A stretch of 57,095 nt of DNA, the filler included, from Bipalium vagum (Eukaryota), in the NCBI GenBank assembly GCA_037834085.1. It is 3 parts of 3 records of this genome, joined end to end, with 100 filler letters (N's around TTAATTAATTAA, not from the genome) between each part and the next. Parts side by side here need not be neighbours in the genome. Positions count along the whole stretch, not along the records: positions 40,611 to 57,095 come from JBBMKC010109179.1; 2 more parts are not named here. The stretch is one strand, 5' to 3'. The position numbers were made by a program, and so were the translations under genes. The notes under the pieces were generated by a model. That model saw only the letters and a list, made by a program, of their open reading frames with translations, was not told the origin of the DNA and did no database searches. Of the stretch, positions 1,760 to 57,095 are shown in pieces (positions within the stretch are counted from its first letter, which is position 1; every line of letters begins with the position of its first letter).

Positions 1760-2612
1760 TCGGTAAACGGTGTTCCTTTAAAGCGAGATATTCAATTTTA
1801 AAGTTTAATAAAAATCCGAAAAAAATAAGACTTGATTGAAATTCAAATAATCTGGGTTATACTAAAACTACATTTAATACTTATTTTCATTATTGTCCAT
1901 TCTGCTTGAAAGACAAGAAGGAAAATTGTACTGTGAATACTTGAATCATAAATTTTAATAATTTATGATTCAACAAAATCGGAAAATATTATTGATACTG
2001 GATAATGCTCCATGTCATCATACTATCGAATTGTCAAACATCAAGTTAGTATTTTTACCTCCTAATACAACTGCTGCAATACAGCTGGAATAATTATAAT
2101 ATTCAAGCTTCGGTATCGTCAACTTTTATGGAATTACCTGCTGACAGTAAGTGAGATAAATGAAAACGTATTGAAAAATTTGCAAACAATAAATTTTAAA
2201 CATGAACCAAGCTTGCAAATAAAACCATCAACGACTAATGCAATGGGATGTCTAAAAATCTTATCCGATTATAAAATTTTTAATGACTTGGATTCAGCAA
2301 TACCTTCATTATCTGAATTAAAACGAATAATATTATCTAAAAAGATAACTGTATTGAAAATAACCACCATTGATTAATATTTTAATAAAGAATAAATGTT
2401 TACATATTCGTTATTTAATTTTGTAGTACCTTAAGTTGTTAAATTTAATTACCTTATTTTTATTTTTCAAAAACCTTTTAAAATTGAACAAAAGTGTAAA
2501 CAGATGTGTAATGTAACCTGTTAAAATTGAACACCTTGATTATCTGAACACCTCTCTAATTTGAACTTTTCAGCAAGGACACTATGGTGTTCAATTTAAG
2601 CAAGTTTCACTG
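1760..2612 (+). mobile_element. pogo/Tigger-like (DDE_1) transposon remnant
   Basis: 1981-2085 translates as KILLILDNAPCHHTIELSNIKLVFLPPNTTAAIQ, the DDE_1 signature. The right end ...AAGTTTCACTG|TA at 2612 has sub-terminal TGAACA repeats. The left boundary is approximate. Confidence 0.8.
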
Positions 2613-8651: not shown

Positions 8652-9584
8652 TATATTTAGTAAACAAAATTATTTTGATAGTGAAAAGACAAAATGGAAT
8701 CTAAGGGTGTGGAAATAAATGATATTTTCTGAGATAAGACTGATTTATTTTTAATAAAAAATTAATAATAATAAAATAATTATTTTTTATAATAATCAAC
8801 CAAGGAAATTAGAAATGAATATTACTACATGCACATATTTTTTACTGATTCAATGAAGACTTTTTAAAACCTTTTTTATTTCTTTAATATTATCACTGAA
8901 TTCATTTTTTGAGTTTTAAGAGACAGTTTTCTTTATAAATCTTGTCTAATACGTACATCGAAAAATATTTATCAAATTACTTAATTAATTTTTTATAAAA
9001 ATATTTTCATATTATTTACTTAATAATTGAGAATAGACATGAAATATAAATGTTATTTAATATTATACCATAATTCTGAAGATATTTATATATTCACCAA
9101 CACCCGACGAGGATATTATTAATTTAATTTTTTTACCAAAATGTGGGAAATATTTTTATTTTTATGGTAAAACAAAATGATATATTTTGACTATTTTAAA
9201 GAGAATAAATTTTTAATATTATTTTTCAAGCAACAATAAACATTGAAAAATTGACATCTAAATGAATTGTAGAAATATGACTCCATAGTGAAATTCAATA
9301 AAATACGACAAAAATAATAAATAATATTCCTTAATATCAAATGGAAGCTAATATTTATTGATGAGAAAAACAAGACTCGGTACAAAATATCATACATAAA
9401 AACATAAAGCGACTCTACGGTCTATTTTGTCAATTGTTCACTGTTAGAAAAATAGGACATAAAAATGAGACCTTTAACCTTTTTTTATGGATATGAATTC
9501 TTCCCGTCAATAAAATGACTTCAAACTGAAATATATGACATTCTAAAGATCTAATCAAATATTAAATGGTTTTAACGATATAAA

Positions 9585-12500: not shown

Positions 12501-14556
12501 ATAACCACACGAAATCAGAGAGGGAATTCAAAAGATCGTAATTGATGTTTTGAGATACATTTCTAAAGATTATCAGTATTTGTTTGAAATATTTTATAAC
12601 CAATCGAAAAGGTGTATCGAACGCCTAGTAATGTATTTTCGAAGTTTTATACTAATAATGACTGTATTTAAATATCAGCTTATATTTTTAGTTATTTTTT
12701 CTTTCACATCAGTCACCGTACCCATGGGACATATCATCTATCACCGCCCACTGATTTATATATTTCAATATTATTTCAGAAGACACTCATATAATGAAAC
12801 TGATAATTTGAAAGTCAAGATCCATGTTCTATTTAATTCAATGGCATTTTGATGAGTAACAATTTTATTTTCAATTCAATAAAATAAAATCATTTGGAAT
12901 TGGACCTGCTTGTTAATTACATCTTTAAGATAATTATTGTTAGTATAGTCTGGTAAAATTTCACTTTACTGGATTTTTATTTTTTTTGTGGTTACCTAAT
13001 GGTACTAGAAGACTGAAACAGAAATTTTTTTTTGTAGACATAATTTTAAAAAGTTGAGTAAGTTGATTTTTTCAACTCCAGGTTCATCCTCAACAGTAGA
13101 GTAGAATACAGGAGAAGTAAGGATATAAATTGACTAGTAAGCAACAAGCTTAGATAATTATAGTTAAATTTAATATTTTTTTATAAGTAGTTCAAAAAAT
13201 TAGTTTGCTTGAATTTTTTAAAATAAGAACCTTACGTCTAAATTAACGATTATTAAATGTTATTAAGCTGCAGTCTTTATAAAATATTTTTAGTTAAAAT
13301 TTAAATAAAATTGCAAAACAAATGTTGGTAAATTTTTATAAAGTAAATAATTTAATTTTAAAAAAAGGGTGAGCTCAATGTTTGAAAAGTCTGTTTAAGT
13401 AATCCGATTTACTGAAATATATTTTTTTGCTTTGATCTTATATTATTATTAAAAATGACACACAAGAATATAACTTTTTTAATGACTAAATTTAAGTTTT
13501 TAAAAATAAGTACTTCATTTTTCACTAGAATTGTTCACACGTTACCATTCCAATTTCAGACTATTTACAGGTAACCATTATATGGATATTATATTTTCAA
13601 GTTATTATGTAAAATTGCTAATTTGGACCAATCAACGATTAAAATTTCACAAAAATAATATTTAAACAAAAAATAAAAAAAATATTAATATTTCATTTGA
13701 TTGTGATAGTATGAAATTTATTTTCTAACATTAATAAAAATATGGGTAATAAATGGAAGAATTGGGTTTTGTTAATTTTAAATAGAAAAAATAAAATATT
13801 TTGATATAAAAACTGTCACAGAAATGCAATAAATGTAAATATTTAATCAAATAAGTTTTCCGGATAAGATAAGACTTTTCATTCAATGAATAGAATGTCT
13901 TGATAAGAACAAAGTTGTAAGCTTAAATAAAGAATTTAATAAAAATAAAATAAAATATTTTAAAAAGAATAGTATACACCAGTAAGATAAAATTCGTTTT
14001 GGTTTTATTTCATTTAATTTTTTAATTAGAAATATTATTATTATTTAAAAATAATAATATTTGAGTAAAGACATTTTTCCTTGTTAATTTAAGCATTTAT
14101 CGTATCTCACACTTCATCTTTTAAATTATTTATTTTTATAAGAGGAAATGAATCAAAAGTCATTCTTCCCTTGCCTATTTCATTTCTCTCATTTGAAAAT
14201 AAAAAGGATATTGAAGTAATCCACAACAAAATTAGAGTAGGAAACATAATGTTTTATTATATAAAACGCATTATTTATATTTGTGACACTTGATACCTAA
14301 TTTTCAGTTGATATTGTATATTGCTCTCCATAAAACGATATCAATTGATTAAATTTATTTGCTTCCACATTCATTTTTATTTTATAATCACAATATTTTA
14401 GTATAATTAGAAATTAAAGGATATTTATCGCTTACTAAACGGTTTTTTGTCCGAAATATCTTTGATTTCCACAATTCCGACAACAAAATTCAGAGGACAG
14501 GATTTTGTAAACCTCAGAAATACTAAGGCTTTTCCACTGCTTTCTTTTATTTTCTC
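9585..14556 (-). CDS. Synaptotagmin-like C2-domain protein, last two coding exons (14436-14556 and 9585-9955), partial
   Basis: Exon 14556-14436 (EKIKESSGKALVFLRF...VVGIVEIKDISDKKPF) ends in phase 1 at GTAAG. It splices in frame to TTTAG|9955 (N-GLNIRITL...KSKVIK...IDESFEF...IGKCVLGP...GLLHWQ...IVYHWHHLKN*), a C2B-type C-terminus. Confidence 0.75.
10410..11420 (+). mobile_element. Degenerate mariner element
   Basis: HTH region (ENWFMRFRDGDDSLE), TSDEKWI, CVWWN, LLHDNARPHVA and SPDLA-like motifs, with stops. Same family as the copy at 32700-33470. Confidence 0.85.
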
Positions 14557-16633
14557 CTGCAAAATGTTAAAATATAACTTAATGGGCACGTACCTTGTAA
14601 GATAGAAAATATAAAATAAATAACAATCTATTGGAAGTTCATGATTAAACATAATTGAGATATCTGACTGATTATTTATAGATTTTTTACCATCTATTTC
14701 TCAGGGAAAAGATACTTCAGCAATGCACGATATTTTTAATACCAGTGAAGCTGTATAAGAACATTCTCCTCTGATTAGGATGATTTAAATGGTAGGTCGC
14801 AAAAAATGAGAATAAAAACAGAGACCAAATTTAGTTACAATGAGGAACAAGAAAATATTAGTTACAAAAAAGGTAAAACAAGTGTCAATATATCGTTTCT
14901 TTATATATATGTAATAAAATAAATAATATAATATGATTTGATTTAATTTAATTTGTAAAACTTGAATAATACTTATTATTAGTTTTGAAAAGAAAATATT
15001 ATAAAACGAGAAAGGGTTACTGAAAAATCAGTGCAGCTTATAATTTTTTTTCTTTCGAATTATTCCGAATAGAAATAGCATCATCTCCATACAATTTTTG
15101 AAGATTCGTACTTGCTGTTATGGCTTTATTTTCAAGTAGGAACTCGTACTAAATTATATAATCCTAATTTCATCGTTTTTGATTTTTAAGCAAAATTTAA
15201 ATATTGCAGGATAAAATTCTAATTTTTCAATCAATAATATTATTAACACAAATATCATTCATTACCTTGTTAATATGTTATTTATTAAGTAACGAGAGAT
15301 TTCATTTTTTTCAAAAACGGTCATCAAAAATGCGAAAACAAGATGAAATTTCATTTGCACTAACCTAATAAATCAGAAAAAATTTAAATAAAAAATTTAT
15401 CTAAAATTTCAAATAGTTTAAATAAAAATGTTAATATTTCATTCAACTTATTTTTATAATTTCCATAAAAAGTTTAAAGTAACCTGTATTTAATCTTAAT
15501 TTTAGATTTTATGATAATTATAAATCTCCATTTATTTTCCCATCTTATCACATTGCCAAGTTGTCACTTTGAATATGTTTTTCAAAAATATTTTAGAAAA
15601 ATAATATTTTTATTATTACCATAAAAGATTTAAGAAAAAAATGAAAATACCCATTTTAATTTTCAAATAAAATAATTATATGTTGATTCAAAATAAATTT
15701 TATTCCAATTAAAAATATTCATTAAGACCAAACTCTTTTTTTAATGAGAAATAAAAATATGATGGTATAACAAAATTTAATTCGTAACATTTCAATATTT
15801 TTTTAAGTCACCTAGGTGAATTTTTATAATATATATAACAGTGATAATGGACAATAGAAATTTATTAATTCATTCGACTGAATTGTAAAAAAAGACGAAA
15901 TTATGAATTTGTTTTAATGTACTCTAAAGAATTTGAGAATTCCGTCAATGTTATAGAGATTTTATTGAGAAAATTTTGATTTTCTGTCAAATAAATAACT
16001 GAAACCCTAAATTTTCCGTTAACTCACTTATTCTGGATGTTGAAGAATAATTTTACTGTCGCTGGCAAAGCATTAATTGAATTATTTTCTCTGTATTAAC
16101 CCGTATGTATTTCATCTTCAAATTATTCTGTGAAAAGATATTTTTAATTTATTTTTATTTGAATTTAATTCTCTGTGATTCGTCAAAATTATTAATTTTA
16201 TTAGTTAAACAAAGTACGCTGTGGTCCAAAAATATTTTATTTGGATTTATTTCATGATTAAAAAAATAAATAAGAATATTATTTCGTTATTCGAATTTGA
16301 ATTAGAACACTTAAAAAAATTAAAATTAATGAAAAAAAAGTCAATATATTTATTTCAGGATTTGAAAATCTTATTTTTATTTATTTACTATAATAAATAA
16401 ATGAAAATATTAAAATATATTTGTCAATATTTTCAAAATGTTCACAACTGAATGTCTGAAATAAAAAGAAAATTATGATTGATTATGAATGAAAATGTCA
16501 AAGAAAATTATAATTAAAAAAATAAATAACTTTTAAGAATTTTTAAAAAAGTATAAATAAATAAATATCTTTTTTGACATTTAATATCATAAAATTAGAA
16601 TTATATGATACTATCATTATAGTCTATAAAAAT

Positions 16634-16733
16634 NNNNNNNNNNNNNNNNNNNNNNNNNNNNNNNNNNNNNNNNNNNNTTAATTAATTAANNNNNNNNNNN
16701 NNNNNNNNNNNNNNNNNNNNNNNNNNNNNNNNN
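16634..16733. other. Assembly spacer: 44 N + TTAATTAATTAA + 44 N (probable artificial contig join)
   Basis: Exactly 100 nt with a six-frame-stop palindrome in the centre. Identical to the spacer at 40511-40610. Confidence 0.9.
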
Positions 16734-17092
16734 GCTTATTCCGTTAGTCAAGCCATACAATGGACTGCCAATTTGATTGTCCTCTTCAGTTTCCCCAACA
16801 TGAATGTGAGTTTGTTAAAATATTATTCAATTATCTATTAATTTTCACTATTAAATTATCTAATATATATTTTCTTTAACAGAAAGCCATCGGAGGATAT
16901 TCATTTTTGCCTTTCCTGGTTATTGTCATCATTTGTTGGATATTCTTTTTCCTCTACATGCCAGAAACAAGAAATCGAACCTTTGACGATGTAGCCCGTG
17001 ATCTTGCTTTTGGAACATTGGCCATTGGCAAGAAGAGAAGTCAATCCCTCAAAACCTCAGGTTACGACAAAGTGCCCTTAGAAGACCACTAA
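16734..17092 (+). CDS. GLUT/SLC2-family facilitated glucose transporter, 3' partial (exons 16734-16805 and 16883-17092)
   Basis: AYSVSQAIQWTANLIVLFSFPNMN|GTGAG...AACAG|KAIGGYSFLPFLVIVIICWIFFFLYMPETRNRTFDDVARDL carries the sugar-porter PET motif. The intron position matches the minus-strand paralogue. The 5' part is lost at the spacer. Confidence 0.9.
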
Positions 17093-17788
17093 CACCTTAA
17101 AAATTTGTAAAACTTATATAAACGATTGATAAAATTTTCATAATTTTTATGAAACTAATTTTTAATTTTGATGAATTATCAGAAAAATTAAATGCAGGTA
17201 TCAAGAATTTTTCAATTTGATTTTGGAAAATTTATATAGCTTATTATTTATATTTTTGTCTTGTATTTTTTATAAAAATATATTTATTATTTTTAATTTT
17301 GACTATTTATTTTTGAATAAATGTTATAAATAATTTATTTTAATAAATAAATAAATCTTTATGGTTCACATATTATGTTCAAATAAAAAATAAGCTGAAA
17401 TAAATAGTTTAAAAAATCGAAAATTCTTTTTATAATTTAAACAAGAGACTAAAAGAAATTTATTTTTCTAAAATTTTAAAGTTATAATTTTCATAATTTT
17501 TCCATGAAATAAGAGGCAAAAAATATTTTTACTTATTTCTTTTAAATAAATGATATACCTTAACTTGAAATATTATAATACAAAATTAATAAAAATTGCA
17601 CTCATTTTATAACAAAAGAGGAATAATAATACAAAGAAAAAAATCTTTAAGTAATAAAATAATAATAGTAATAAAAAAATAATAATAATTGATATTTAAA
17701 ATAAAAATGATTAAAATATTTTATTAAATCATTAGTACGAAAGATGAAATGTTATAAATAGTAAAATATTTAGTCTTAATTCCATATA

Positions 17789-19084
17789 CAGGGTTTTTAG
17801 TTCATTAACAAATGTTTTAAACTAAATAAGAAACGTTTAAACTTCAAAAAACAAACTTATACAGGAAATTTCATAATGCTTAGCAATTTACATGTAAAAA
17901 TTGGCAAAAGTATACAAATACCTTTTAATTACTGTTGCGCATTTTTTTAACATCTTGCAAAAAAATCCGGTACAATCATTAGTAACAATTGTTTCTAATC
18001 CGTTTGAAATTAAAATATTTTATTCGTCTACGTTCCTTGGTTCATTTATGCGAATATAATGTTTCAAACTTACTAAAAATATTGTCTATCTGATTAAACT
18101 ATGAAGTAGATGCAGGTGAAAACTGTAATTCAAGACAATTTGCTCAGATTAAATCTTTTATTTTAGTATTCTTGCGAAAAGGTACATTATCCATTACCAA
18201 CGTGCACATTGCCAATTTACAATTTTATGATATCTATGACATGAGATTTTCAATATATGCATGAAAGAAAGTTGAATTAAATGCATAATTTTGTTGCTCG
18301 TAGAATATATCCACATGCCTATATATTAAGCAACAAACGCTTATGTTCCCTGGTCGTAGGGCAGATAGACGCTTTACCGGTATTTTGCTTTTAAAGCTCT
18401 GTCGTGGTTCGATCGCATACTGACGTTAAATGGCAAAATAAAGAAGATGTTATCGTGAGTAAATCTTGAAATTCAGTACCTTATGTAATTCTTTGTTGGA
18501 TCAATTCTGGTAAAACGCGTTTACCTTTATTTTTTTAAAGAATAATGGAAGTCATTCAGACAGTTATGAATAGTTGTTTCTGATAAAATATCCTTGACTT
18601 TTTCCATTATCATGGTTTTTAAAATTTTCAGAGTACTATCAAATTTTTTTTCATCAGAAATAAATGTTTTTATATAAGTAACTTTTATTTCCATCCGGAA
18701 ATAAAGTTTTTTAAATGAAAATAATATTATTAATATATTAAAATAAAGTAATATGTTAGTTAAACTATTAACCTTGATCTCAATCCCAATCAACAGATTA
18801 ATTATTTTCTCAATTTTATGAATCCTTTTGTAGATAAAATAAATGAGCGCAGATCAAAGAAAACATACAAAACACTGTGCTTTTCTGTTTTTTCGTACTT
18901 TATTTTATTAAGATGGCATCAATAATTATTGGATAATGGAAAAACAGAAATCAGTAAAATTAAATTACAAAAAAAGGTTTATAATTGAACATGAGAAACT
19001 TTGATAATAATGACAGAGGTTAGAGATTTAGAGATCATTAGATAAATATATAGATATAAAATCGAATTTATGCATCTTAATCTG
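17789..19084 (-). mobile_element. Degenerate Tc1/IS630-like (DD34E) element
   Basis: TA|CAGGG end at 17789. VMDNVPF motif near 18180-18200 and an HTH-like segment (LSETTIHNCLNDFHYSLKK) in ORF 18527-18793. The far boundary is approximate. Confidence 0.7.
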
Positions 19085-19412
19085 TAATAATAATAACATC
19101 ATAATATAAATATCAAAATATCTTATATGGAACATTAGTTCGTAAGCTTTTAAATGGATCATTAAATATTCAAATTAATGGCTTCTTGGTGGCTAAAATT
19201 AGCTTTAAAAGACAAATATGAAAAAGTCTTTTTATATTGAGCAACCTAATACAACTTGGGTAAAACATAAGGGGTACAAATAAATAATATGGATTTATTT
19301 AAAATAGATTTGTGAAATATCGAAATATAATTGTGATTTGAAATATAAATCAACTTGTTCGGATAATATTAATTAATAGGTTAATCATTTAAATTTTCAT
19401 AATATGTAACTA

Positions 19413-19934
19413 TTAGGTGTACAAGTTGAAAGTGACGTTTTCATAAATGATAATGTCATTTATTAAGATAAGATGTTTTAGTAATCATATATATTTGTTT
19501 TACAAAATTTATTGGATGAAGATGCCTGTCAATCGCAAAATCAACTTGCTATAAGATTAGGTGTTACCCAGCAAGCAAAAATAGCGCGCCTAAATGATAT
19601 GGATAAAATTTCAAAGAAAAGACAATTGGAGCCTCATCAATTAAAGTCTTTCTTCCATTGACTATAGACAAGAGATTAAAAGGCGATCTATTTTGAAAAT
19701 CTCAAACGTATGAGATCATTGGTTAGCCCAGGTCAACCATCAGAACAAACTACAAGACCAGACTGCTTTGATAAGGAAACATCTCTCTGTGTCTGGTGGG
19801 ATCAGCCATGCGAGGTGTACCATGAGCTTCTCAAAGCAGGTGAAAGTGTTAATTCGGAGAGATACAATAAACAAGTAGCCCAGCTGAATCAGTCTTTAAT
19901 AGTTAAATATCCAGAATTTTGTTGCTTTGACTGA
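19413..19934 (+). mobile_element. Internally deleted mariner fragment
   Basis: TIR-like TA|TTAGGTGTACAAG. ORF 19710-19934 contains LCVWWDQ...YHELLKAGESVNSERY. Confidence 0.8.
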
Positions 19935-20605
19935 TAATCAGCTCTAACCTTTAGGATAAGATGAATTTCTATTAGAAGAGTTCTTAAATCTGACAAGCAG
20001 TAAAATATCACTTGAGCAAATTGAGGTATTACTGGACATTTCGATTTTTTTAATTTTTTCTACGAAAGGTGGTTGGCTTTTTGATTTTCTACGATAAGGA
20101 TTGTGCTCGTCCCATATGGAGTTTGTGAGACTGGCATGTACTGGAAAGATTCGGATAGTTTAACAAGCTTATAGTAATTTTTCTTTGTATAAATAACTGA
20201 AAAGATTCAACAATCATATTTCATTATATATTACTTTATTTTAATTTTCGTGATGTCAAGATGTTTGAGATGTTTTGTTATTTTCGAACATGTTTTAAAC
20301 TTTATTTTGAATAAGTTACTGTGCTGCGGTTAAATAAAAATTTTCGACTTGCAAATTATTTCTTTTTGGTAAGTGTTGATTATTAATGAACGCAACTGGA
20401 TGATTTTAAGTTGGATCCTTCTTTGAACCAGGTTAATATAAATATTAACATATTATTTGGTGACATGCCAGACATAATTCGTATTAATTTAGGGATGTTT
20501 GGAAAATTTGTGAGACGACGTTGATTTGAGTAGTCAGTTTCATGTTTTGAGTAATTTGAATTTCCTGTGAAAAGTGGTGAGCCTGAGGAATTTACTGAGT
20601 TTATA

Positions 20606-24114: not shown

Positions 24115-27100
24115 TCACAAATCGACATCGATCAATTTGTCTCTAATTATCGGAGATTTTTCGTCTACTGATATATTTGAGGATCGGGTTTCTTTTGATG
24201 ACCCAAAAGCAAGGTCTCGGGCTATATTATCAAATGTTCGATTTTTTGTTTCTGGCATATAGAAGTAAAAGAACACCCAGCATATTATGACAAAAACAAA
24301 ATATATCAAAAATGAATATCCTCCAATGGCTTTCTGTAAAAGAGAAATCAATTTCATTAGTTATTATTTATATTTAATTATCATTTTATTGAAGTGATTT
24401 TGGACTGTCATGGTGATTCAAAGCCTTAGAAAAATATCTTTAAATTATTTGATTAAATCATCACGTTTGAACATCAGAAAATAAATATCTGAAGATTTTT
24501 GATTATCGCAAAATATTAGTTTCATTTTTTGAAATGTCTTGGACTGGTAAAAGATACAATTTACTTTCTTTTTTAAAGTGTTTGTGTTTTTGGTAATCTA
24601 GAGGTATTAGAAGACTAAAACTAAATCTTTTTTGCGGAATTAAAATTTCTTTATATCAAGTGTGATATATATTATAAAGTTTTTTTGCTTTTCAGATGAG
24701 TAATGATATAAGAAATTAGAAATTTAGAAATTAAATTTTATTAATCTAATAAAAGGAACCTGAGTCACTTCAAAAACATACCTGGCTAAATTACTTTGAC
24801 TAAATATTATTTCCTATTATAAAAGAAACGAAATAAAATTAAAAAAGACAGTTAGATATAGTGTAGTTTTACTATCCTTTTGGGATGTGCAGACAGTTGA
24901 TTTTGTAAAAAATTTTTAGAAGTTAAAGTAAAAATCATAATTTCGCATAAATGATGCCTTTTTGATTTATACTTTGCTAATTAAACCTTTTTGGAAAATA
25001 TAATTATAGAGATATTTGAAAACTATTAACTAAATATTTTTGAAAGATAATTAACATAAAGGTCCATTAGTAGTTCGGTCACACAAATTACTTAATTTTA
25101 TTAGTACTATTATGTGTGGGCATAAGTTTGAAACCATTTTTTCATCGTTCTTTTACTAATCCAAATATTATCAAATAACTGCTCTGAAATTTTACATTGG
25201 CAATCAATATATTAAAATTTATAAATATATTAATTTTATACATTATACATTAATTTTATTTTTTATATATATAAATTTAAAAACCAAAATATCAGTCTTC
25301 AAAATGAGTGATGAAAAATTGTACATTCGGTGTTGCATAAGATATGAATTTGATCAAGGCAAAAATTCATCCTAGGCATTTAAACCAATATGTTCCGTTC
25401 TTAGTAATAATGCCGTTTCCTGCAGTACATATAAATACTGGTATCGTCTATTCAAAGATTCATTTTGATGTTACCGATCGACCACGTAGTGGTGCTCCAC
25501 AGATATTGGAAGAGCTAAAGAATGAAAATAGAGTCCAGGCGCAAATTTATGTCTACACCTAATGCACATCATTTGTGATTAAAAGTTATTACATAATATA
25601 TTATTTATGAATTAATGTACCGGGTGTTCAAGTTAAAAGTTCATAAATAGAAGATTGATCAAACTTCCTACAGGTAATGAATTCATGAAAATTTTACATT
25701 TTCATAAAGATCAAAAATGCGGATTTATTTTTTTAACTAAGTTGAATTACAAGATATGTTGTATTTTATCAAAATAGTTACAAATATGATATGTACATAA
25801 ATCATATTTTTATTCGAAGTATCCACCCTTATTTTCTAAGCATGCTTTCAACCTATGAGTGAAATTTTTCAGGACTTGTTGAAGGTTAATTTTTGTCACA
25901 ATCTGTACAGCTTGGATGATATTTTCCTTCAGTATTTCACGACTATTAGGGCGATTGCCGCCTGCATACATTTTTTCTTTCAAGAATGACCATAACCAGA
26001 AATCCAGGGGTGTTAGATAAGGGCTTTGGGCAGGCCATTCGTTAAGAAATCCTCTTGAAATTATTTTTCCAGAACCGAAAGTGTTTTCCAAGAATACTCT
26101 TGCTTGTTTGGCAATATGGGGAGCAGCACCATCTTGTTGGAAAATTAAACGGTTAAATCTCGGCATTGATTTGAGACTCGGAATAAGATAGTGAATAAGC
26201 ATATCCAAATATCGTTCCGAATTTATAGTCTAACTATTGCCATTATCCTCAAATAAATATGGTCCAATAAGAAAGGAAGAAGATATCGAAATGAATACAT
26301 TGACCTTTGCAGAGAATGTTGAGTATTCAACCAAATTATTGGGCCTTTGCGTCCCCCAAAATCGAAGATTTTGTCTGTTCACCCAATCATTGAGATTGAA
26401 TGAGCATTCATCACTCCATACAATTCGGGATAAAAATGTATCATCCTTGGATTTGCCATATGTTTTTCTGAGAGACTGCCCGATTGTGACTTTATAGGGA
26501 AATAATTTCAATTCATGTCTGAGATACGTGTGAACTAATCCAATAGAGGAACCTGAAGCAGAACTCAGTTTCCTTATGCTCGTAGATGTTCCTCTGCTTT
26601 CATCTGGTGTAAAACAGTATCAATATCCTTTTGTTTCTCTTCTGAAGCTCTAGGAGATCGTACATTGTGATCTTTATTAATGCAACAAGTTTGCTGGAAT
26701 TTAAAAATAATTTTTCTTATTTGCTGTACTGAAGGCGTGTCAATCTTTTGTTTTATTTCTTTTTCAGTTGAAAATTTTCTCTGAGTTTCAGCGAAACTCT
26801 CAGTTTTAAAAAATAGCTCTACCAGCCTAATTTTACCCGATTTTGATAATATGTAAGGCATATCTAAAAATAAAATATAATTTTAAACAAATAAATTTAT
26901 TTATTGTCATTATTTGTGCATTTAAACAACATAAGTTTATATATAAAGCAGGATTTACTAAATCCGTAATAAAGGTTATTCTATCAAATAAATTTATTTT
27001 CAATAAAACTTTACAGCATAAAAAATATTACGCTTTTGTTTATGAACTTTTAACTTGAACACCCCGTATAATTATTAATTGTCTAACATATCTATCCAAA

Positions 27101-30100
27101 TATTTACTGAAGAATTTCCTCTGTGTAACGCTAATATTAACAATTTTTAAGAAGCTTACATGAAAAATGAATTTTATAACTTTAACAAAGTAAAAAATAC
27201 AGATTTATTTATGACTAAAAATAATAACACTTTGTAAATAAATAAATACTGATGGAACATGTGTAATATTCGATTGTGGTGTGAAATAGAAAAAGCACTA
27301 AATGTCAAAAAAGGTCAAATTGGATATCCACCTTATTCACCTTATCTCACGCAATTAAATCATTTGTGAAAATGTCGAAAATAATGGCCATATCCAAAAA
27401 TGTGTACAAACCGCCGACAAAACAGATGGTCAAATCAATATAGTTCTTCTGCCAGTTGCCTGGTTCGTTTTTTATATTTTTAAGGATTTTTTTTCAAAAA
27501 TAATTTATAATTAGCATTTTATATTTTTGTTTATATAAATGTACAATGAAACTAGTAGAAGAATTTTAGTCTTCATATACTCTTAACTTCTATGAAGGTT
27601 GTATAAAGGTGTTAATTTGTCTGTCATAGACAAAAATATTTAAAAAATTTGAACGTTTTAAATATCTAATACAAAAAATATATATTTTTATGATATTAGG
27701 TTATTAATTTAGAAATGTGCGTTTTAAAAACTAGATTGGGACCCATTTGCCACATTTTTTGACAATTAAATTGGCAATTTCCACTTGACTGCAGTTGAAT
27801 CTCTCATCAATTTCTTGAGCAGTTTGTCGAGGATGTCTATCCATGACTTTTTAATTCATTATAATCTACCGTTTGAGAATTTCGTCGATACTGATCATCT
27901 TTCAGATGTACATAACCTTGTCTAAATCATCGAAACCATCTTCTGCATTGGGTATTACTAATAGCAATATCACCAAACACATTGAATATCGTTCAGTATG
28001 ATTCTGTACCAGTCCTTGAAAAATTCCTTGTTTGAAATCACACCACATAGAAATACAATTTTTATTTTTGGTCATCCAAATTTCCACCTGAAAATGAACG
28101 AAATGAAAGATAATATTAATAAAATATTATAAATGTGACAAATATACACAAATTTAAAACGCGTGTTTTTTGGTGGTTTATGCAATATTGAATGTTATTC
28201 ATTAAAATTAAATTTGTAGCTTAAAAGGTCAATAAATCTGGAAGATCATATTTTATGGAGATAAGAAAATATTATTATAATATAAAAATATATTTAGACA
28301 AAAATAATTTTTTTAAAAAAACATTTAATTTAATTTTGCATTTTATTTCTTTGTTAATTATCAAAATGATTATTTAATACTTAATCAAAAAAATAATATT
28401 ACGTTCATATTTGGAAAACTGAATACAACGATCAATATTGCAGTCCATTCTACACCTTGACTAACAGAATATCCAGCCCCTCGAGATTCTTGTCGGAATA
28501 TCTCTGCCACAATCAAAGCAGGAACCGGACCCAAACCAAAAGCATATCCACCAATATAAAGCATTATTACAAAGGTAGAAATTCCTCCAACTACTTTTTT
28601 GTTGTTTTCCGTTAAAAGACCCGGTGCATTGACCATGTTGACAGTAATGGTGAGACTCAATAAACAAATTGCCAATAAAACAGATGGCCAAAGTAAGAGA
28701 GTTCTTCGACCATATTTTTCCAATAATGGTAAGGCGATAAGTGTGCAGAAAACATTGAAAATTCCAATTAGTATAACACAATATTGGTTATATGCTGCTG
28801 GGATATCTGCCGTTTCTAACATTGAACTGGAGTAAGAAATGACCTAAACGTTATCATTATCAGTGGAATGATATTTAATAATGTCTTACAGCATTTATTC
28901 CGGAAAGTTGTTGCATAACTTGAATGAGACAAGCGATTATTAAAGGCATTCTCAAATCTTTATGGGTAAATAATTGACAAAATCTGAATTTTTGTTCTGT
29001 TTTTGATATCTCAACCTCTTCTTTAAGTTCTTTTATGAATTCATCAGCATCTTCCACTTTATGAAGTCTGATAAATTCTCTTTTTGCCAGATCTTCATTA
29101 GGCTGTGTCAAAAAAATATATCTTGGACTTTCCGGACACAAAGGTAAAAGAAAAAGTGATATAATGGCTGGAATTGCTGCACAGGCACAGGCAACAGGCC
29201 ACAAAGTTTCTGTATTAAGAGTATGGGTCATAGTCAGAATATAACTAAACACAATTCCCAAAGTAACAGCAAGTTGATGACAAGCTCCAATTGCACCACG
29301 ATATGCCATCGGGGCTATTTCAATGAGATAAATGGTTGCCAACGGCACAGTGAGACCAGAATTGATGCCGATGAAGAATCTTCCTACAAATAACAAAGCA
29401 GCTACTTTTGTTTTAACAGTCAGCCCATTAATGATGGCTCCAATTATGACAAATATGTGATTGAAAATCAAACCATTTTTCCTAGGCAATTTAGGTTTAT
29501 AAGTTACTTTTATTGAAATATACTTTATTACCTTCCAATTAAGTCAGCGATCCATCCACTCGAAAAGGCTCCAATAATTCCGGCTATAACATAAACCGTA
29601 TTTGTTTGGGCATAGAAAAAATCGGCATCAAGCTTTCCTTGTTGGATGTTGTTGATTAAGGACGAATTAAACGTTGGACTCGATGTATTATAAGCATCTT
29701 TACATGGTACATTCAGAATTGTTTCATTCAAGAAACATTTTATATTCTTTAATATTAATAAAGATAAATTTTAATATAACTCTTATAATATTTTCTAAGG
29801 AATAGAAGGCAGAAACTTGTGAGTCACCACATTATAATAACTGAATATTAAATTTTTTTGGAAAAAATTACAATAATTAATTAATTCATAATTAATAATA
29901 ACTTAAACTACTAAGGTATTTGTGTGAAATATTATTAATATTATTTATTTATTTATCATTATTAGCATTATTACTATTATTATTTATAATTATTTACTAT
30001 TATTATTATTATTTATTATTATTATTTATAATTATTATTTATTATTATTATTTATAATTATTATTATTTAATATTATTATTCAATATTATTATTTAATAT

Positions 30101-32699: not shown

Positions 32700-33470
32700 A
32701 ATCCATAAAATAATCACCATTCATATAAATGATGTTTCGCCATCTTACAGTCAAAGCACGAATCCCTTTGTTTAAAAATCCAGGTTCCTGTGATTCAAAG
32801 TAAGTCTTGACCCAAATTTCAATGTCATTTATATTTAAATTTTTTTCCAACCAAATAGTGCTGTATGGGCCTGAACGAGTGGTAGTTTGTTGACGCCAGA
32901 TCAGGGGTGTATGGCGGATGAAGAAGAACCTCCCAACCTAATTCCTCTAATTTCAGTTGTGTCAATTTTGCTACATGATGTCGAGAATTATCGTGTAAAA
33001 ATTTATTCTTTACGGTGTTTACTCCGTGTCGACGAAGAGCCTGATCTACACAACTTACTTCTTGGCAATAATGTTTTAAAGTTATCGTTTCTCCTCGAAT
33101 GAGCAACTCAAAATACACTAGATCGTGTATATTACTAGACACAAAGAAATACGTTATTGACTTGATTTAGAGTTGGTATCGCCTAATCACATTTGCCCAA
33201 ACATTGGAAATTTTTATGTTAATTTTCGTATTGAATCTGATGTTAAAATTGAATCAAAGACCGCAAGAGCAATGACAAACAGAGAATACGACTGGTTTTA
33301 TTGCTCTTTGAAAAATCACGGGAATTCTTTTTCCAAGCCTACCTGTTTTCCCAAGGCGATTCAGGTTTTTACAAATAGTCTTCTGAGAACAATCGAATTT
33401 ATAGGCAAGTTCTCGAATGGATTGTTGAGAATTTGACTCGATGCTTTCTTTCAACAATATGAGAAGCTAA
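32700..33470 (-). mobile_element. Mariner element fragment (same family as 10410-11420)
   Basis: ORF 32825-33142: FLHDNSRHHVAKLT...HPPYTPDLASTNYH. ORF 33254-33457 is HTH-like. Confidence 0.9.
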
Positions 33471-40094: not shown

Positions 40095-40510
40095 CAGGGT
40101 GCGCATAAAGTCTTTGGACTTTGTAAACGATTATTTAAAGACGAAAATTCATCAACAACAAAAATGTTTTCTTATAATTACATAAAAAGGCTACAAATTT
40201 AGTTATTTAAATTCATTTTCGAATATTCCTCCTTTAGATTTGATGCAGGCTCGTAAACATCTCGGAAACTGATCTATCGCGACACGCACTGTTTCTTCGT
40301 TAATTTCTTTCCAGGCTTTCTCCAAATCACGTTTTAATGAGTTTACAGACGTATGTAATTTATCACAGGCTTTTCTCTGCAGTATTCCACATTTTGAATA
40401 GTCCAGAGGGTTCAAATCTGGTGAGTATGGACTCCATTGATTGGAGTCTAAAAAATCCGGAAAATTCTCTTTACAGAACTGTTGGGTCCTCTTTGCTCGA
40501 TGAGCAGGCG
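40095..40510 (-). mobile_element. DD37D (maT-like) element, 3' end
   Basis: TA|CAGGGTG end. SPDLNPLDYS...LHTSVNSLKRDLEKAWKEI...RACIKSKGGIFE. Truncated by the spacer. Confidence 0.85.
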
Positions 40511-40610
40511 NNNNNNNNNNNNNNNNNNNNNNNNNNNNNNNNNNNNNNNNNNNNTTAATTAATTAANNNNNNNNNNNNNNNNNNNNNNNNNNNNNNNNNN
40601 NNNNNNNNNN
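40511..40610. other. Assembly spacer: 44 N + TTAATTAATTAA + 44 N
   Basis: Identical to 16634-16733. Confidence 0.9.
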
Positions 40611-49781: not shown

Positions 49782-51346
49782 TATTAAATAATATAAATAT
49801 AATATATATAATAAGTATTCTTAATCCTAAGAAAAATAAATCCAATATTAATCGTTAGAGCACTTCTTACCATTGAAAATTAATATCTGTTTTACAATAA
49901 TTTTTGTTATGTTGATAGAAATAATATTAACAAGACAAAATTTCAATTCTATGTGAAAAAATCTAAAATTAAAAGTTCAACAGAAACAATCTTTATGAAA
50001 TAAAAAATAGGAATATTTATCCCAATACATTTATTAAAAAACAAATAAAATTAAAACACAGCTCAGTGAATAGCACTTAACAGAAAATTGGCCTTCCGTT
50101 TAAATCACATTCGAGAAATCATTGAAAAATTAAAAATACATTAATGAAAGAAATTTTCATTATATTGATTACAATTTTCAAATAAATACCAGATTCAACA
50201 GAGAAATGTAAAATTTCGAAAAGCAAATGATCTTTAAAAAACGATACAATGCTTGATGGTTCCAATATTTTAAGAAATTCATAATCACCATTATAAAATA
50301 TTTATACATTATTGATAATTACAAATCATTAATGAAAAGATTATTTTTCAATAAGTAAATAATAAAAATCAATAAAATTTGGAAAATAAATAATATATTA
50401 CGCTATGAAAAAATGCACAATATTTTGAAATTAATTTTTATAACTCAACCTAATAAATTAATTATCTTGTTGATAATCAATAAGAATCCCATCGTTTTTA
50501 AATTTCTCTGGCCCAACGGAAAGAAATTCTGCTGCAATATCAGAAAACCCCTTTTATTAATATTATCAATTAAAACAAACTTATTTTATTTCATTTAAAT
50601 TTTAATATACCCAGTCCAGTAAAACATCAAGTTAATTAAATTTTTGTTCGAATTTAAACCCTTTTTCTGTAATTTATTGTTTGGTTTTCGTTATCTATTG
50701 TAGTCCTATTGTTTGCTAAATCAAACACAATTAAAATTCTTTCGTACTTTAAGATGAATTGAATTATAAGTTAATATTATTGGTAAACAATATTTTAAAA
50801 ATATAAAAATATAATTTTTGGTGCTGATTATTCCCTAACATATCATACTTCATATATTATAAATTTTCCAAATAATTTTTCGTTAAAATTTAAAAGAAAA
50901 GAATCATTAAGTTTGATCCAAGATGATACCAATTTCCTTATATTACAAAATATCTAAGAAATCTCAACCTGAAGTCTTCATGATAAATAATACTATACAC
51001 TTTATTGAGTTAGATTAAGAAAATATAAATAATATTTGATGTTATAATTGATAGGTAATCGGGGTACATATATACTGAAAATTAAGTTTCGAGGATGATA
51101 AAGAAAAGTGAAGGAATTAGACAAACATTGAAAGGTTTTGTGGATTATATGAGGTTAACTGGTTTCCCAGAATAAAAGTACAAAAGAGTTTAATACAACC
51201 TTTGGCAGATGCAATTTTGTTTGATAATTAAGATTTGATTTTTAAAAGATCCATGAAAAACCTAGAAAATTGAATTTTACGTTTAAAAATAGAAAGGGTT
51301 AAATAATTATTTTATTCTGTTATTATAAATATTAAAATTACCCCAC

Positions 51347-51567
51347 CTGCAGTTGTCAAACCGGGACTACTGGTAAACTTAATTATATCTACAATTTTAA
51401 CAGCGAATTGTTGTTTCGTTTCTTTATGAATACATCTTCTTACAACACTGAAAGGACCCCTTTTAAAATATGGAATTATAACATTTAAGAAAAGCAAAAA
51501 ATGTGCTTTACTTTCCAATCATTTCACACAGCTGATACACATCATCAAATAAAATTTCTTCAGCCAT
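51347..51567 (-). CDS. CASK: CASK (MAGUK with N-terminal CaM-kinase domain), coding exons 1-2 (51512-51567 and 51347-51459), partial
   Basis: Spliced translation [56 protein letters not shown] closely matches the CASK/LIN-2 N-terminus, including the diagnostic GKGPFS loop. The 52-nt intron is GT-AG. Confidence 0.95.
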
Positions 51568-52225
51568 AAATGTAATGCAAAATTAAAATTCAAATTATTT
51601 ATATTTATTCACCTTCATTAGAATAAATTACAGTTCATTTAAACAATATCTCAGAAAATTAACCTTAAAAATTTATTCAAAATAGAATTTTATATTTTAA
51701 AAACTTTTTCAAATTAAAAATTTTTTAAAAGATTAAAAAATTTATTTCATAAAAAATTGATTAATTAAAAAATAATAGAAAAACAGTTTTTATTTTCTAA
51801 ATAATAAACGTTTATATACAATCCATATTAACAATATCGATTTTTCATTTAATCCAGACATTGTCAGACATACATATTTACAAAGCATGTTTTTGACATA
51901 AATACGCACACGCATCCAATAGTAACGTTCTACGACTTATTAATAGAGATGGACATGCAATTACAGACCTGCGACACTTAATGACAGGCAAACATATACA
52001 CCACTTCACACAGAGAAAACACACACCCACACACCCGCAAAAACATAAAAAACATCGTAGAGGCTGAATGAAAATGAATGAAAATTTGGTATTATTATTA
52101 TTGAAATTATTATTAATTATTTTTCTTTCTGATCGATTTTGTCAATAACGATAACCGTTACATAATTACGTGGGGTGTAGTTTAATGCTAATTGGTCAAA
52201 TTTGCCATTGATATTTATTTCATGA
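51568..52225. promoter_or_regulatory. Probable bidirectional promoter between CASK and the UBA-domain gene
   Basis: 658 bp separate the divergent ATGs. A locally GC-richer island with CA-rich motifs (ACGCACACGCA, ACACACCCACACACCCGC) lies at 51900-52040. Confidence 0.55.
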
Positions 52226-53146
52226 ATGGGTGCTAAACTCTCAAATTCCTCCTGGAATCCGAAAAATTTTTCCAATTACAATACGCATCTTACCTCAGAC
52301 TATTCAAATCGTCGTGATTCCAACAGTTTAGACTATAATAATTCGCCTGAAATTCCTTCAATTGTGGTTGATTATTCCGAAGAATATATTAATAAATCTG
52401 ACCATTTGATGCCGTCCATCATCTATCAAAAAGACCAAGTTGAACATTCAGATTTCACAAATTACTTGCAAAATCATACAGACCAAAATTTCAATGATAC
52501 CAATGCAACAGAACCAGAGATTTTCCCGAAATTGACAGCAGAAAACAAATCTGCACCGGTGAGCAGTACGAATTGGTTTCGAATACATCCCATAAAACAA
52601 AAAGGTGTCAAGCTCAGTGATACTCACTATTGGATCATTAACGAACCTAAACATAAACGATGTCATTCTGCTCGAGTTAAACGTAACCCACCAGAAATGT
52701 ATGTCAATGCTACTTCATTGGGAAATGATCAGTATGAAGAACCCGATTTACCGTATGATCTAAACGAACAGATTTCACAGGAATATTCAAGAACACGGCC
52801 AGTTAAGCGAGGCAAATCGGAAAATTCTAAATCTTATTTATTCAATATGCACAGAGGTCTTGTGATCCGTATGATGCTCAAAATTCCGTCCGCATCTGAA
52901 ATGGAATGTAACAGTGTTCTTATTGGTGCCAATTGGGATTTTAATGTTGCAGAGAAAAGACTGAAAATTGACATGCTTCACAGAAAAAGCTATGTCAATC
53001 AACAGCGTTGCACTCAGCTTTTGGAAAAATACAAATGGAATTTAGAAGAAGCACAAAAACAAGCTCAAAAAGAGTTCAGACAACTGCAGATTGAGAGACA
53101 GTCGTCTAATTCTTCACGCAGCCATTTTTCAGATGATATTGGATAA
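52226..53146 (+). CDS. Intronless 306-aa protein: N-terminal MGxxxS, low-complexity middle, C-terminal ACK1/TNK-like UBA region; no kinase domain
   Basis: Long ORF in AT-rich DNA with an in-frame TGA immediately before the ATG. The C-terminal ECNSVLIGANWDFNVAEKRLKIDML...CTQLLEKYKWNLEEA matches the ACK/TNK C-terminal UBA pattern (EC..AL....W....A...LK.E.L.......C...LE...WNLE.A). Confidence 0.85.
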   Translation: MGAKLSNSSWNPKNFSNYNTHLTSDYSNRRDSNSLDYNNSPEIPSIVVDYSEEYINKSDHLMPSIIYQKDQVEHSDFTNYLQNHTDQNFNDTNATEPEIFPKLTAENKSAPVSSTNWFRIHPIKQKGVKLSDTHYWIINEPKHKRCHSARVKRNPPEMYVNATSLGNDQYEEPDLPYDLNEQISQEYSRTRPVKRGKSENSKSYLFNMHRGLVIRMMLKIPSASEMECNSVLIGANWDFNVAEKRLKIDMLHRKSYVNQQRCTQLLEKYKWNLEEAQKQAQKEFRQLQIERQSSNSSRSHFSDDIG

Positions 53147-54755
53147 AATTATGTTTTGTAGCCAATGAATTAATCTTATCCCCCCTTACCTCATCTAGAT
53201 GGCATAATTGTTCTTTCTGTATTTATGAAGTTAAAAAAATATTCTCAAAGCAAATTTATTTGTTTATGAAGTCAGTGTTTCTAAGTAGTGCATTTTGATA
53301 TTTTGTAAATTAACTCTAGGCCTATGTATTAGTATTTTACTTTATTTGTATAATTAAATACAAAAATTATTTTATTACTTTAAAACCAGTGTTTATCTAA
53401 TCATATGATTTATTCTAAAATTAATGCAGATAAACAAATTTACTTTTTTGTATTTGACAAAATATGACATGATTGCTTATGTGAATGAAAATATTTTTTA
53501 AAATAATAAAAAATATTGCTTGATATTATTTTTCATTAGTGTATTTACCAATTTAAGTCGGATGTGACTAATTATCATTTATTGACATTCTAATTTACTA
53601 ATAAATTCCATATCTCGAATATGTATTTTTTAATTTGTCACTATTTGATAATGACAGTGTTTCGTTGTGCAGTTTTGTCATCAGAAATGATTTTACTGTC
53701 GACATTAACTGAACGAAAGTTAAAAACAGATTTATCAAATATCGTCGTAAAAATGATGCAATTAATTTTCAACCTGATTTCGTAACATTGATATTAAAAT
53801 GCAGAATGTATGCAAATTTCATTAGAAAAAATCAATTCAGATTTAGATTTTATGTGATCACATTAGATTTTGAAAATTATTATTGAGAGTTCAAATGTTA
53901 GATGTTGTAAAAATTTTATATTCAATTTTAGTGAATAGAACAAAATCTGGTTTTAAAAATCAAAATTGTATTTTTGTGGTAAATTAAAGTCAATTATAGT
54001 TCCAAAAATGTTATTTTTATTTTTACTAATATCGTTAAATATTGTTCACCGATTCGGTCAAATTAATAAAAATTATTTCTGGTATTATCATTAAAAAGGT
54101 GTTTTGAATTTTTATTTAAATGAATCACTTTAATATTTAAAATAATTTTTTTTTTAAAAATAATTTAATATTGACATTTTTTTAAAATATTAGGTTCGAT
54201 ATTATTCACACTAATATTGATTTTTAAAAATCGATTTTAAAGCATCAGACTCCAAATATCATTTCAGGTAAATCAATGATAATAAAAAAACTTCCGCCGT
54301 TTACTTAGTTAGTTGTACGTGAATAAATATGAAACACGAAGGTTTCGATTTAGAAGGACATATGAATAAGAGGATTAGAAGGATTATGAATAATTAACTG
54401 AATAACGTATCAATCCATAAAATGATGTGTTGTTTAACGTCTCATCTGCTTACCTTTTAATGTTATTTATTATGAAATCAAAAATAATTCATTATGGATA
54501 ACTTTCTTGAAACCTTCATTTGAGTAAGAATTCTAAGATGTCTTTATATTGATAAGAAAGTTAAAGATATACAAGTTAAAAAGATATCAGAAATAATTCC
54601 AAGTATAAAATTATAAAGAAAAGTAAAAGTAAATTTTAAAAATATTACCAAAACCACTGATAACAAATTAAATAGATGATAACTTAGTTTTACTATCTGA
54701 ACCGTTAATTGATTAATGGAGTACTTATCGAAACGATATGAAAAATTTATTTATA

Positions 54756-54983
54756 TTAATATCCACCTTTCAGAAATGGCACCAAGAGAAATGCAGATCC
54801 ACATTTGATCTTATAAAACCTGAGGGTTTTATTTTCCAATTTTTTCTTCTCAAACAAGATTTGATAATGCTCAAAACTTAGTTTCTCTTGACTTTCCAGT
54901 TTTAATTTTAGTTCAGAAATTGTCTCATTTTCATGAACGTCCATTGAAAAGGATTTATCTTCATAAAATACAATAATCTTCAT
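54756..54983 (-). CDS. Divergent single-domain ubiquitin-like protein (75 aa, ends LKGG-Y)
   Basis: Aligns end to end with the ubiquitin fold pattern (ETISELKLKL, QILF..KKLE.KTL..Y.I). It has a di-glycine plus one residue, and an AATAAA just after the stop. Confidence 0.8.
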   Translation of the reverse strand: MKIIVFYEDKSFSMDVHENETISELKLKLESQEKLSFEHYQILFEKKKLENKTLRFYKIKCGSAFLLVPFLKGGY

Positions 54984-57095
54984 ATTTTGATACTTTAATC
55001 CTCAATTTAAGTGTTTATATACTTGAAAGTTATGTAATCTGAAAATAATGATTTCCTTAAATTAATTTTCTGAAAAGTATAAATATTTTTGTTAGTCAAT
55101 TTTTTAAAAAAATTATCACGATCATTATCGATTCATTAATTCTGGACACTTTTACTGTAGTTTTCCATGGGACACGTCGAGTTGATAAGAGTAACATTTT
55201 ATAGTAGGACTTTCTTCAGCTCTGGAAAAAGTTTTAATTAAAATAATAGCCATAATAAACGACAAAACAATAATCATTAGTCTCTAGAAGAAATAATTCA
55301 CTTTGAAATTGTGCTAGGTTGAGCATTATTATACTTTCAATAATAGCAATATGACGGTACTATGAATCTAAACCATAATTTTTACACATTTCTTATCCCT
55401 TTCTTTATCTGTAAATTTCACAAAAAATTTTCATTTTTTGAAAAAAATTCACCACTGATAAAACTACGAATGAAACTTTTAAGTGTGAAAAAATAATAAT
55501 AGTGGGAAAATTAGTTTTAAAAAAAGTATGAATGTAAAAAGTATTAAAAGGATTAGTGAAAGTATTGGGAGTAATGATATGTATTTTATGAAAAATGTAG
55601 TAGTTTTATCTTAAAAAATAAGGAAAAGATTAAATTTTATTTAAAGAAAAGAGCAAATAAAAAATTGGAAATTTTCCTTGAGATCGCTTTAAAAACATTT
55701 TAAATAAATAATTATTTTATATCAAAATTTTTAATATATTCCAAAAGATTTTCAATTAAGACAGGATTGTTGGTCAAATAAATTATAAAACTGGATTATT
55801 TTTTAAACATTTTGCTTCATTTTAGTTTTGTTGGGTTAGCCACGGGCACATCCCTGTTAACCCTGGTAAAAATTATACGTTAAAGACCGCAAAAGTATCA
55901 GAAAATAATAATAATTATTATTAATTAAAAGTATAAATATTAATTATATTAATATTAATAATAAAATATTAATTTATCATTTTTTCAAAACCGATCTAAT
56001 CTTGACAATGACAAAGCTAAATTGCCAAGATTAGATCAGAGTTCACGAGGAGGGACTGATTTACCAATAAGGATCTAAAAAGGAAATTGACATTCCCCAT
56101 TGATAAAATGGTCTACGATTGATTGATCGTCTGACCAGAATAGTATATAAGGAGCTAGACTTCTCAATGGTGACTATCTGGAAGAATGACAAAAAAAGAA
56201 ACGCTTTAGTTTGGACTTTGAGAAATTAAATGTTAAAAATTAAAATCAGAACAATTTTTCCGATGCCTAACACAGAAAAATACTTGATTTTCTAGAAGAT
56301 GTCACATATCTAAGTGTTTGTGGTTCGACGCTTACTGCTAGATCTAATCTCAAAAATATAAAAATGCTAACTCTATTAATATAGGTTAGAACTGGGCTCA
56401 CCAACTACGTCAAAGGTAGTGTAACAAACAGGTATTTTAAGATACGAACTACGTCTAATTCAATTAACTAAGATGATACGTTTTTTGTTACAAAAATATA
56501 TTTTGTAATACAAATTCAACTCTTATCACAGTTATAATATTAATTAATATTAGCCCTGATGTCAAAAATACGTATTCTGTCGCCTAGAGCGAAACAGAAT
56601 CGAATTGCCAAGAAAACAAACAAAAGAAATAAGAAGATTAATGAAAAGAACGTATTGCAGAGTTAATGATTATATAATTAATATAATTTTTCTCAAAAGA
56701 GATCGATGTTTTAAATATCCGAAGCGTATTTATTACCTTTTACCAGCTTAACTTGTCGGAGCGAAGTTAATTGCGAATTGAAGGAGAAAGCCAAGAGCTT
56801 ATATACTCCTGATTTTCACATTTCTGATCTCTTGATTGATGGAAAATAAAACTTTCCATTAATAGAATAATATGGGGTTTTCTGCTATTTTAGGAAAGTT
56901 CTTATATTATAGAACTTACTAAATATAGCCTCCCACATATTAATTTTTCATATTAATGTATTTTTAGTAAGTTTCTTTTTTTGATTTATTATTATTCATT
57001 ATTACTCATTATAATTAGTTTTATCAATTTTGTGAGTTAAGTTTTAATTAACTTCAACCCACAATTTATATTATTATTTTATTTATTTATATTAA

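Follow-up and report, generated by a model that had tools for sequence, protein, structure and literature searches.

Does the C-terminal tail of an ACK-type tyrosine kinase exist in flatworms as a protein of its own, and if so, what would such a protein do? The question is raised by an uninterrupted open reading frame (ORF) in a stretch of DNA from the flatworm Bipalium vagum, here called the window, which measures 57,095 nucleotides and joins three parts of the genome assembly. The original prediction described the product, here P0001, as a stand-alone, probably myristoylated adaptor or decoy ending in an ACK-type UBA region. That core idea stands; its most conserved element, segment 2 of a Mig6-homology region (residues 119 to 141), had been missed, and we set out a Mig6-like hypothesis instead.

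We confirmed that the ORF runs without interruption from MGAKLS and that a stop codon directly precedes it in frame (Table 1). P0001 shares its start methionine with three relatives of 304 to 308 aa that are 76 to 82% identical to it. Comparison over 304 codons with L001, the DNA of one of these relatives, gave a pN of 0.095 and a pS of 0.79, a difference beyond chance, and the pN for residues 117 to 147 was 0.013. Codons 1 to 15, which all precede the first AG of the ORF (52297), differ from L001 at five synonymous positions and by one replacement. The upstream AG nearest the ORF is at 52179, and an in-frame stop that is also kept in L001 then intervenes, so that Met1 is unreachable by read-through from upstream exons. 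P0001 is a genuine coding unit, complete in itself, and purifying selection acts on it as far back as Met1. Two AG sites at codons 34 to 35 are common to L001, and an internal acceptor there is formally possible but unsupported. Of the 218 plus-strand frames of at least 38 aa upstream in the window, 217 were scanned with Pfam and none of these matched a kinase, SH3, or SAM domain; motif patterns used to check for shorter upstream exons gave one four-letter match. One contig of sequencing run X1 spans 50500 to 54815 with zero differences; X1 may itself be the source of the window, and the agreement argues only against an assembly slip. L001 starts 9 bases 5′ of the ATG and terminates in a run of A, which is compatible with a transcript. 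In both sequences, an ATG in another frame lies four bases upstream of the start codon and opens a short overlapping upstream frame (52222 to 52236 on the plus strand of the window; 6 to 47 in L001).

The neighboring gene on the other strand had been named CASK, and its proximity was taken to leave little room for kinase exons. The distance and the kinase-type exon hold (the only match obtained is a weak Pfam Pkinase one in the second exon, E = 0.005), and we presume the neighbor to be CASK-like. The gap between the genes does not by itself exclude kinase exons; the stop-ATG junction and the relatives of P0001 do. On the 3′ side, the 41-base block shared with L001 contains ATTTA and TACCTCA, the latter presumably a let-7-type seed match. 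The block is likely a 3′ UTR control element, and its identity suggests post-transcriptional control.

Table 1. Features of the P0001 locus, in window coordinates.
Feature	Position	Strand	Remarks
Kinase-less ACK C-terminal protein P0001, uninterrupted ORF, 306 aa	52226..53146	+	Start MGAKLS; relatives of 304-308 aa with same start; pN 0.095, pS 0.79
In-frame TGA abutting start codon, common to L001	52223..52225	+	
MGAKLS, predicted N-myristoylation signal (Gly2, Ser6)	52226..52243	+	MGxxxS/T in 12/24 flatworm-clade sequences
PSIVVD (residues 44-49), PxIxIT-like	52355..52372	+	Identical in 4/25, closest relatives only
Segment 2 of the Mig6-homology region (residues 119-141), with a predicted beta-hairpin	52580..52648	+	
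Tyr135, equivalent of Mig6 Y394 and ACK1 Y859	52628-52630	+	Next residue Trp, not Tyr
Tyr159-Val-Asn (residues 159-161), YxN motif	52700..52708	+	25/25 flatworm-clade sequences have a YxN between segment 2 and UBA
YEEP (residues 170-173)	52733..52744	+	4/25; not family-wide
RGKS, basophilic RxxS site directly before UBA	52808..52819	+	RxxS in 23/25
ACK1/TNK1-type UBA region, about residues 207-283	52844..53074	+	Sequence profiles; pLDDT 90-98; 1.1 Å over 71 columns to TNK1 UBA 7tcy_A
3′ flank, 41-base block identical to L001	53186..53226	+	Identical despite near-saturated synonymous sites
Head-to-head neighbor, first coding exon, kinase-type	51512..51567	-	Starts at 51567, 658 bases from P0001 ATG

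Elsewhere in the window, a divergent ubiquitin-like ORF on the minus strand (54756 to 55001; Pfam ubiquitin, E = 4e-7; about 75 aa from its Met) ends in Gly-Gly-Tyr, like a processable precursor. Its position 1.6 kb downstream from the UBA gene is probably coincidental, and further copies are suggested by a 200-base contig that has a higher depth and 17 differences. Sugar-transporter exons occupy 28385 to 29543 (minus strand; Pfam Sugar_tr, E = 1e-48), with a separate sugar-transporter C-terminal fragment on the opposite strand at 16880 to 17089. Broken remnants of mariner/Tc1-type transposases were identified by Pfam within 1962 to 20000 and by eye at 25810 to 26882, 32825 to 33166, and 40203 to 40562. 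A resemblance to a synaptotagmin-like C2 domain at 9585 to 9971 (minus strand) was likewise seen by eye and has no Pfam match. The window ends in a very high-copy repeat (55900 to 57095), with a summed contig depth of 50,000 to 100,000 compared with about 22 over the P0001 gene.

The UBA region is the part of P0001 that ties it to ACK. Single-sequence matches were weak (ACK1 UBA, E = 0.05; Pfam UBA_4, 21.5 bits against a cutoff of 21.8). A profile of 11 flatworm-clade sequences searched against the PDB found the ACK1 UBA at E = 3e-8 and the TNK1 UBA at 5e-7, and a wide profile of 75 sequences found the ACK1 UBA at 3e-27; PF28526 (UBA_Sid-3) is precomputed on five of eight longer relatives. A first fold from four sequences was poor (mean pLDDT, 38.5), and fold searches with it returned the TNK1 UBA amid generic UBA/CUE structures. 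The model built from the wide alignment has a pLDDT of 90 to 98 over residues 201 to 290, with predicted disorder elsewhere except for a hairpin at 123 to 131, and the 11 best Foldseek rows were all TNK1 UBA structures (7tcy_A: 1.1 Å, 71 columns, target TM 0.86, E = 0.008). Profile and model thus bear out the ACK-type UBA fold that had been read from the sequence, and ubiquitin binding is predicted, as established for the ACK1 and TNK1 UBAs in the material available from PMC10047419 and PMC9703632. A casein kinase 2 match (E = 0.1 to 0.2) was rejected as chance; it was gone with deeper profiles.

What had been described as a single protein is a member of a flatworm-wide family rather than a one-off. 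A library profile search gave 81 matches, 18 of them at E < 1e-10, and none of the 18 had a kinase match. Fifteen of these were looked up, yielding 11 named relatives that are all flatworms, from planarian and monogenean to fluke and tapeworm (Schmidtea, Cichlidogyrus, Schistosoma, Paragonimus, Opisthorchis/Clonorchis, Calicophoron, Echinostoma, Fasciolopsis, Taenia, Mesocestoides, and Schistocephalus). A tree built from 48 selected sequences (132 columns; 18 sequences from the flatworm clade and 30 others) places the flatworm sequences, among them S. mansoni Smp_159590 and Taenia TsM_001123000, in a single clade that includes P0001 (UFBoot 90). The nearest neighbor of P0001 in this tree is S. 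mediterranea AFJ24731 (99), which makes a triclad planarian the likely source of the window. No kinase-fused sequence falls inside the clade, in the library matches or in the tree, and Pfam scans found no tyrosine kinase, SAM, or SH3 domain in P0001 or its 18 best relatives; the same scan finds these domains in P0062, P0069, and P0078. The stand-alone, kinase-less character first proposed is upheld by these relatives together with the constraint to Met1 and the conserved stop-ATG junction. Sequence comparison supports a single clade of stand-alone, kinase-less ACK tails across flatworms.

Members range from 234 to 579 aa, the fluke and tapeworm forms being longer, with added PxxPxR motifs. An earlier search for longer relatives was blank even though relatives of 545 to 579 aa exist, a sign of its insensitivity; a later one gave eight matches among 4590 candidates, all of 545 to 579 aa, and was itself insensitive, missing non-flatworm ACKs that score 56 to 64 bits with the same profile. 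AFJ24731 (P0005) has only 234 aa, is 37% identical to P0001, and sits on a long branch; it may be a second planarian paralogue and not the orthologue. Its identification with a wound-induced gene of Wenemoser 2012, suggested by the accession series, was set aside as unproven, the paper being tied only to JX010 nucleotide numbers. Databases already hold the flatworm sequences, labeled as hypothetical, "UBA domain-containing," "Activated CDC42 kinase 1," or "Protein kinase domain-containing"; HRD and DFG are absent from the flatworm records labeled as kinases, and the kinase labels on these family records are misleading. Many non-flatworm matches (250 to 820 aa) also lack a kinase, some of them called on long genomic contigs, and are probably fragments or large terminal exons of ordinary ACK genes. 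If so, the family may have arisen when an ACK tail exon gained its own start. Outside flatworms, P0045 begins MGKSIS and is kinase-less with segment 2 and a UBA, and kinase-less ORFs of 600 to 800 aa with both elements occur on genomic contigs; an older kinase-less form, or kinase-less isoforms outside flatworms, may exist.

The resemblance to Mig6 lies in residues 119 to 141. Residues 104 to 163 have no Pfam match, and single-sequence PDB searches with residues 104 to 163 and 114 to 143 did not find Mig6; profiles alone did so. A flatworm-only profile matched residues 50 to 68 of the Mig6 chain 4ZJV_C at E = 0.0093, and the wide profile matched it at 6e-7, a value that is less independent as the profile takes in probable ACK tails. 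The Ack1 Y859-Y860 peptide, taken from the accessible Table 1 of PMC10473914, aligned with residues 125 to 140 of P0001 at 7 of 16 identities, a score matched by 3 of 200,000 shuffles; across the 34,893 places in the six frames of the window, it scored 43 at P0001 and 31 at the runner-up. Of the 81 library matches, 66 contain a strict segment-2 pattern, including 4 of the 5 that bear a kinase, and the entire hairpin, beyond the tyrosine alone, is nearly invariant. The residue after the tyrosine is never Tyr in these 66 motifs: W occurs 34 times, F 31 times, and L once; absence of the second tyrosine is therefore the invertebrate norm. By profile and peptide comparison, these residues are Mig6-homology segment 2, homologous to that of Mig6 and ACK1. 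Segment 1 was sought with the ACK1 segment-1 peptide, which had no significant match in any of 29 sequences, invertebrate ACKs included (lowest p = 0.095).

In the consulted portions of PMC10047419, segment 1 of Mig6 (M346, F352, and Y358) blocks the EGFR dimer interface and segment 2 takes up the substrate site of EGFR after phosphorylation of Y394/Y395, being a weak EGFR binder without it. High-potency inhibition by Mig6 needs both segments, according to passages of PMC8306081. In the part of an adult S. mansoni phosphoproteome at hand (PMC7089424), Smp_159590 carries pY345, the equivalent of Tyr135, in a segment-2 peptide identified from one spectrum (XCorr 3.3; 2.5% FDR filter). That one spectrum shows that the schistosome orthologue is made as a protein and that the segment-2 tyrosine is a kinase substrate; inhibition is not implied. 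In the accounts available (PMC3135232, PMC3117856, PMC12837073), separate genes for two ACK kinases are recorded both in S. mansoni (Smp_162900 and Smp_164930) and in F. hepatica, and fluke ACK kinases measure 1259 to 1461 aa (PMC12837073, in part). Four EGFR-family kinases are listed for S. mansoni in the sections consulted of PMC3135232.

Shorter motifs are conserved unevenly. The N-myristoylation consensus is a Met-Gly start with Ser or Thr at position 6. Half of the flatworm-clade sequences (12/24) begin MG, and every one of these 12 has Ser at position 6, even though their N termini are otherwise unalignable and represent about five independent lineages; only 1 of 63 other library matches has MGxxxS/T. 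The other 12, including all cestode records, have no MG start, through loss or start miscalls. Conservation of the Gly2/Ser6 start, an expectation of the original prediction, is supported, and myristoylation is predicted. The PSIVVD, YVN, and YEEP motifs noted there are all present, and of these only the YxN, a Grb2-SH2-type motif, is family-wide; PSIVVD, of the PxIxIT type used in calcineurin docking, and YEEP are each kept in 4 of 25. PxxPxR occurs in 18 of 25 sequences and is missing from the planarian ones. A clathrin box was found in none of the 25, and Pfam GTPase_binding (CRIB) matched neither P0001 nor any flatworm protein, being present in four kinase-bearing matches.

P0001 can be compared with several known systems. 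Like ACK kinases (human ACK1/TNK2, Candidula P0062, and Patiria P0078), it has the order proline/linker, segment 2, YxN, UBA, and it shares the THY(F/W) form of segment 2 with invertebrate ACKs; unlike them, it lacks SAM, kinase, SH3, CRIB, and clathrin box and has a new MGxxxS N terminus, and ACK kinases of about 1200 to 1350 aa contrast with 234 to 579 aa in the flatworm family. Like the vertebrate tumor suppressor Mig6 (ERRFI1, Gene 33, RALT), it appears to be a kinase-less ACK derivative whose segment 2 bears a Y394-equivalent tyrosine, phosphorylated in the schistosome orthologue. P0001 differs from Mig6 in lacking segment 1 and a CRIB match, in having Trp for Y395, in its predicted myristoyl anchor, and in keeping a UBA, which we take Mig6 to lack. 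P0001 is Mig6-like in proposed action yet no member of the Mig6 family, because neither segment 1 nor CRIB was detected and the tandem tyrosine is absent. Its UBA shares the TNK1 UBA fold; TNK1, in the portions available of PMC10047419 and PMC9703632, is a kinase and has no Mig6-homology region. Reviews describe Mig6 as vertebrate-only and ACK1-derived (PMC8306081, relevant passages) and ACK1 as its only homologue (PMC10047419, likewise). A full-text literature search, with most subscription papers and supplements outside its scope, returned no paper with Smp_159590, AFJ24731, or I1ZI77, nor one on planarian ACK1 or ERRFI.

With a probability of roughly 50%, P0001 acts at the membrane, to which it would be anchored, and damps receptor tyrosine kinases, most likely of the EGFR type, by Mig6-like feedback that evolved independently. 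Myristoylated Gly2 would hold the protein at the membrane, where an active receptor kinase would phosphorylate Tyr135 and the hairpin would stay in the substrate site, as does Mig6 pY394, with the Trp at +1 standing in for primed pY395. Phospho-Tyr159 would recruit Grb2, and the UBA would bind ubiquitin on the activated receptor complex, leading to its uptake or turnover; anchor and UBA together may supply the grip given to Mig6 by segment 1. The origin would be an ACK gene, independent of vertebrate Mig6, because the UBA is retained and the flatworm clade is nested among invertebrate ACK tails. A damper is favored since catalysis has been dropped and exactly the receptor-facing parts kept. 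In the available portions of PMC10473914, the C-terminal proline-rich/Mig6-homology part of ACK1 binds EGFR and ACK1 affects EGFR turnover, a process on which its UBA bears (also PMC10047419 and PMC9703632, in part), and C. elegans ARK-1 dampens LET-23/EGFR via Grb2/SEM-5 (passages of PMC3038647). Against the damper reading, segment 1 went undetected, the priming tyrosine is missing although segment 2 binds EGFR weakly when unphosphorylated, the flatworm proteins show no CRIB match or clathrin box, the MG start is found in half of the records, and the schistosome phosphosite, from one spectrum, points to a substrate and not to an inhibitor. We offer as tentative a more specific version, a priming-independent, product-type Mig6 analogue in which a freed, myristoylated ACK tail, handed over by the ACK kinases through gene fission, limits EGFR/ERK signaling both in regenerating planarians and in flukes and tapeworms that live as parasites.

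The same parts could serve a scaffold whose tyrosines recruit SH2 proteins and whose UBA couples them to cargo that bears ubiquitin; no kinase would be inhibited, and the role in signaling might even be positive. The constancy of YxN (25/25), the frequency of PxxPxR (18/25), and the failure to detect segment 1 would fit such a scaffold, as would the activation, rather than inhibition, of Abl by phosphorylated Mig6 (PMC10047419, text available). The near invariance of the whole hairpin suggests instead a shaped kinase-binding surface, and we consider the scaffold possible but doubtful. Fission of a flatworm ACK might also have left a tail that acts in trans, restraining the ACK kinase domain until Tyr135 is phosphorylated. 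The Mig6-homology region of human ACK1 autoinhibits the kinase, which becomes active when the region is phosphorylated (PMC10047419 and PMC10473914, as far as available), the flatworm clade has no kinase-fused sequence, and no longer relatives than those of 545 to 579 aa were found although fluke ACK kinases are more than twice that length. That blank is weakened by the non-flatworm ACKs that the search also missed, and the isolated region would be expected to bind weakly in trans (excerpts of PMC10047419); we regard restraint of ACK as unlikely.

Very improbable, in our estimate, is that P0001 is a fragment produced by gene calling or only the terminal exon of a longer gene for an ACK kinase. 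Probable terminal-exon fragments among the non-flatworm matches and the AG sites shared with L001 at codons 34 to 35 would accord with this. Against it, coding constraint reaches Met1, ahead of the first AG in the ORF, the stop follows the nearest upstream AG, the upstream frames scanned gave no kinase, SH3, or SAM, and kinase-less genes are annotated in many flatworm genomes as distinct from the ACK kinase genes there.

The phylum-wide flatworm family indicates that the regulatory tail of ACK was freed from its kinase at least twice, in vertebrate Mig6 and here. The family offers a natural test of what segment 2 does when segment 1 and priming are both lacking, and it corrects database entries in which these flatworm proteins are named kinases. 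For planarians, P0001 and its relatives are concrete candidates, open to RNAi, for the feedback brake still missing from receptor tyrosine kinase signaling.
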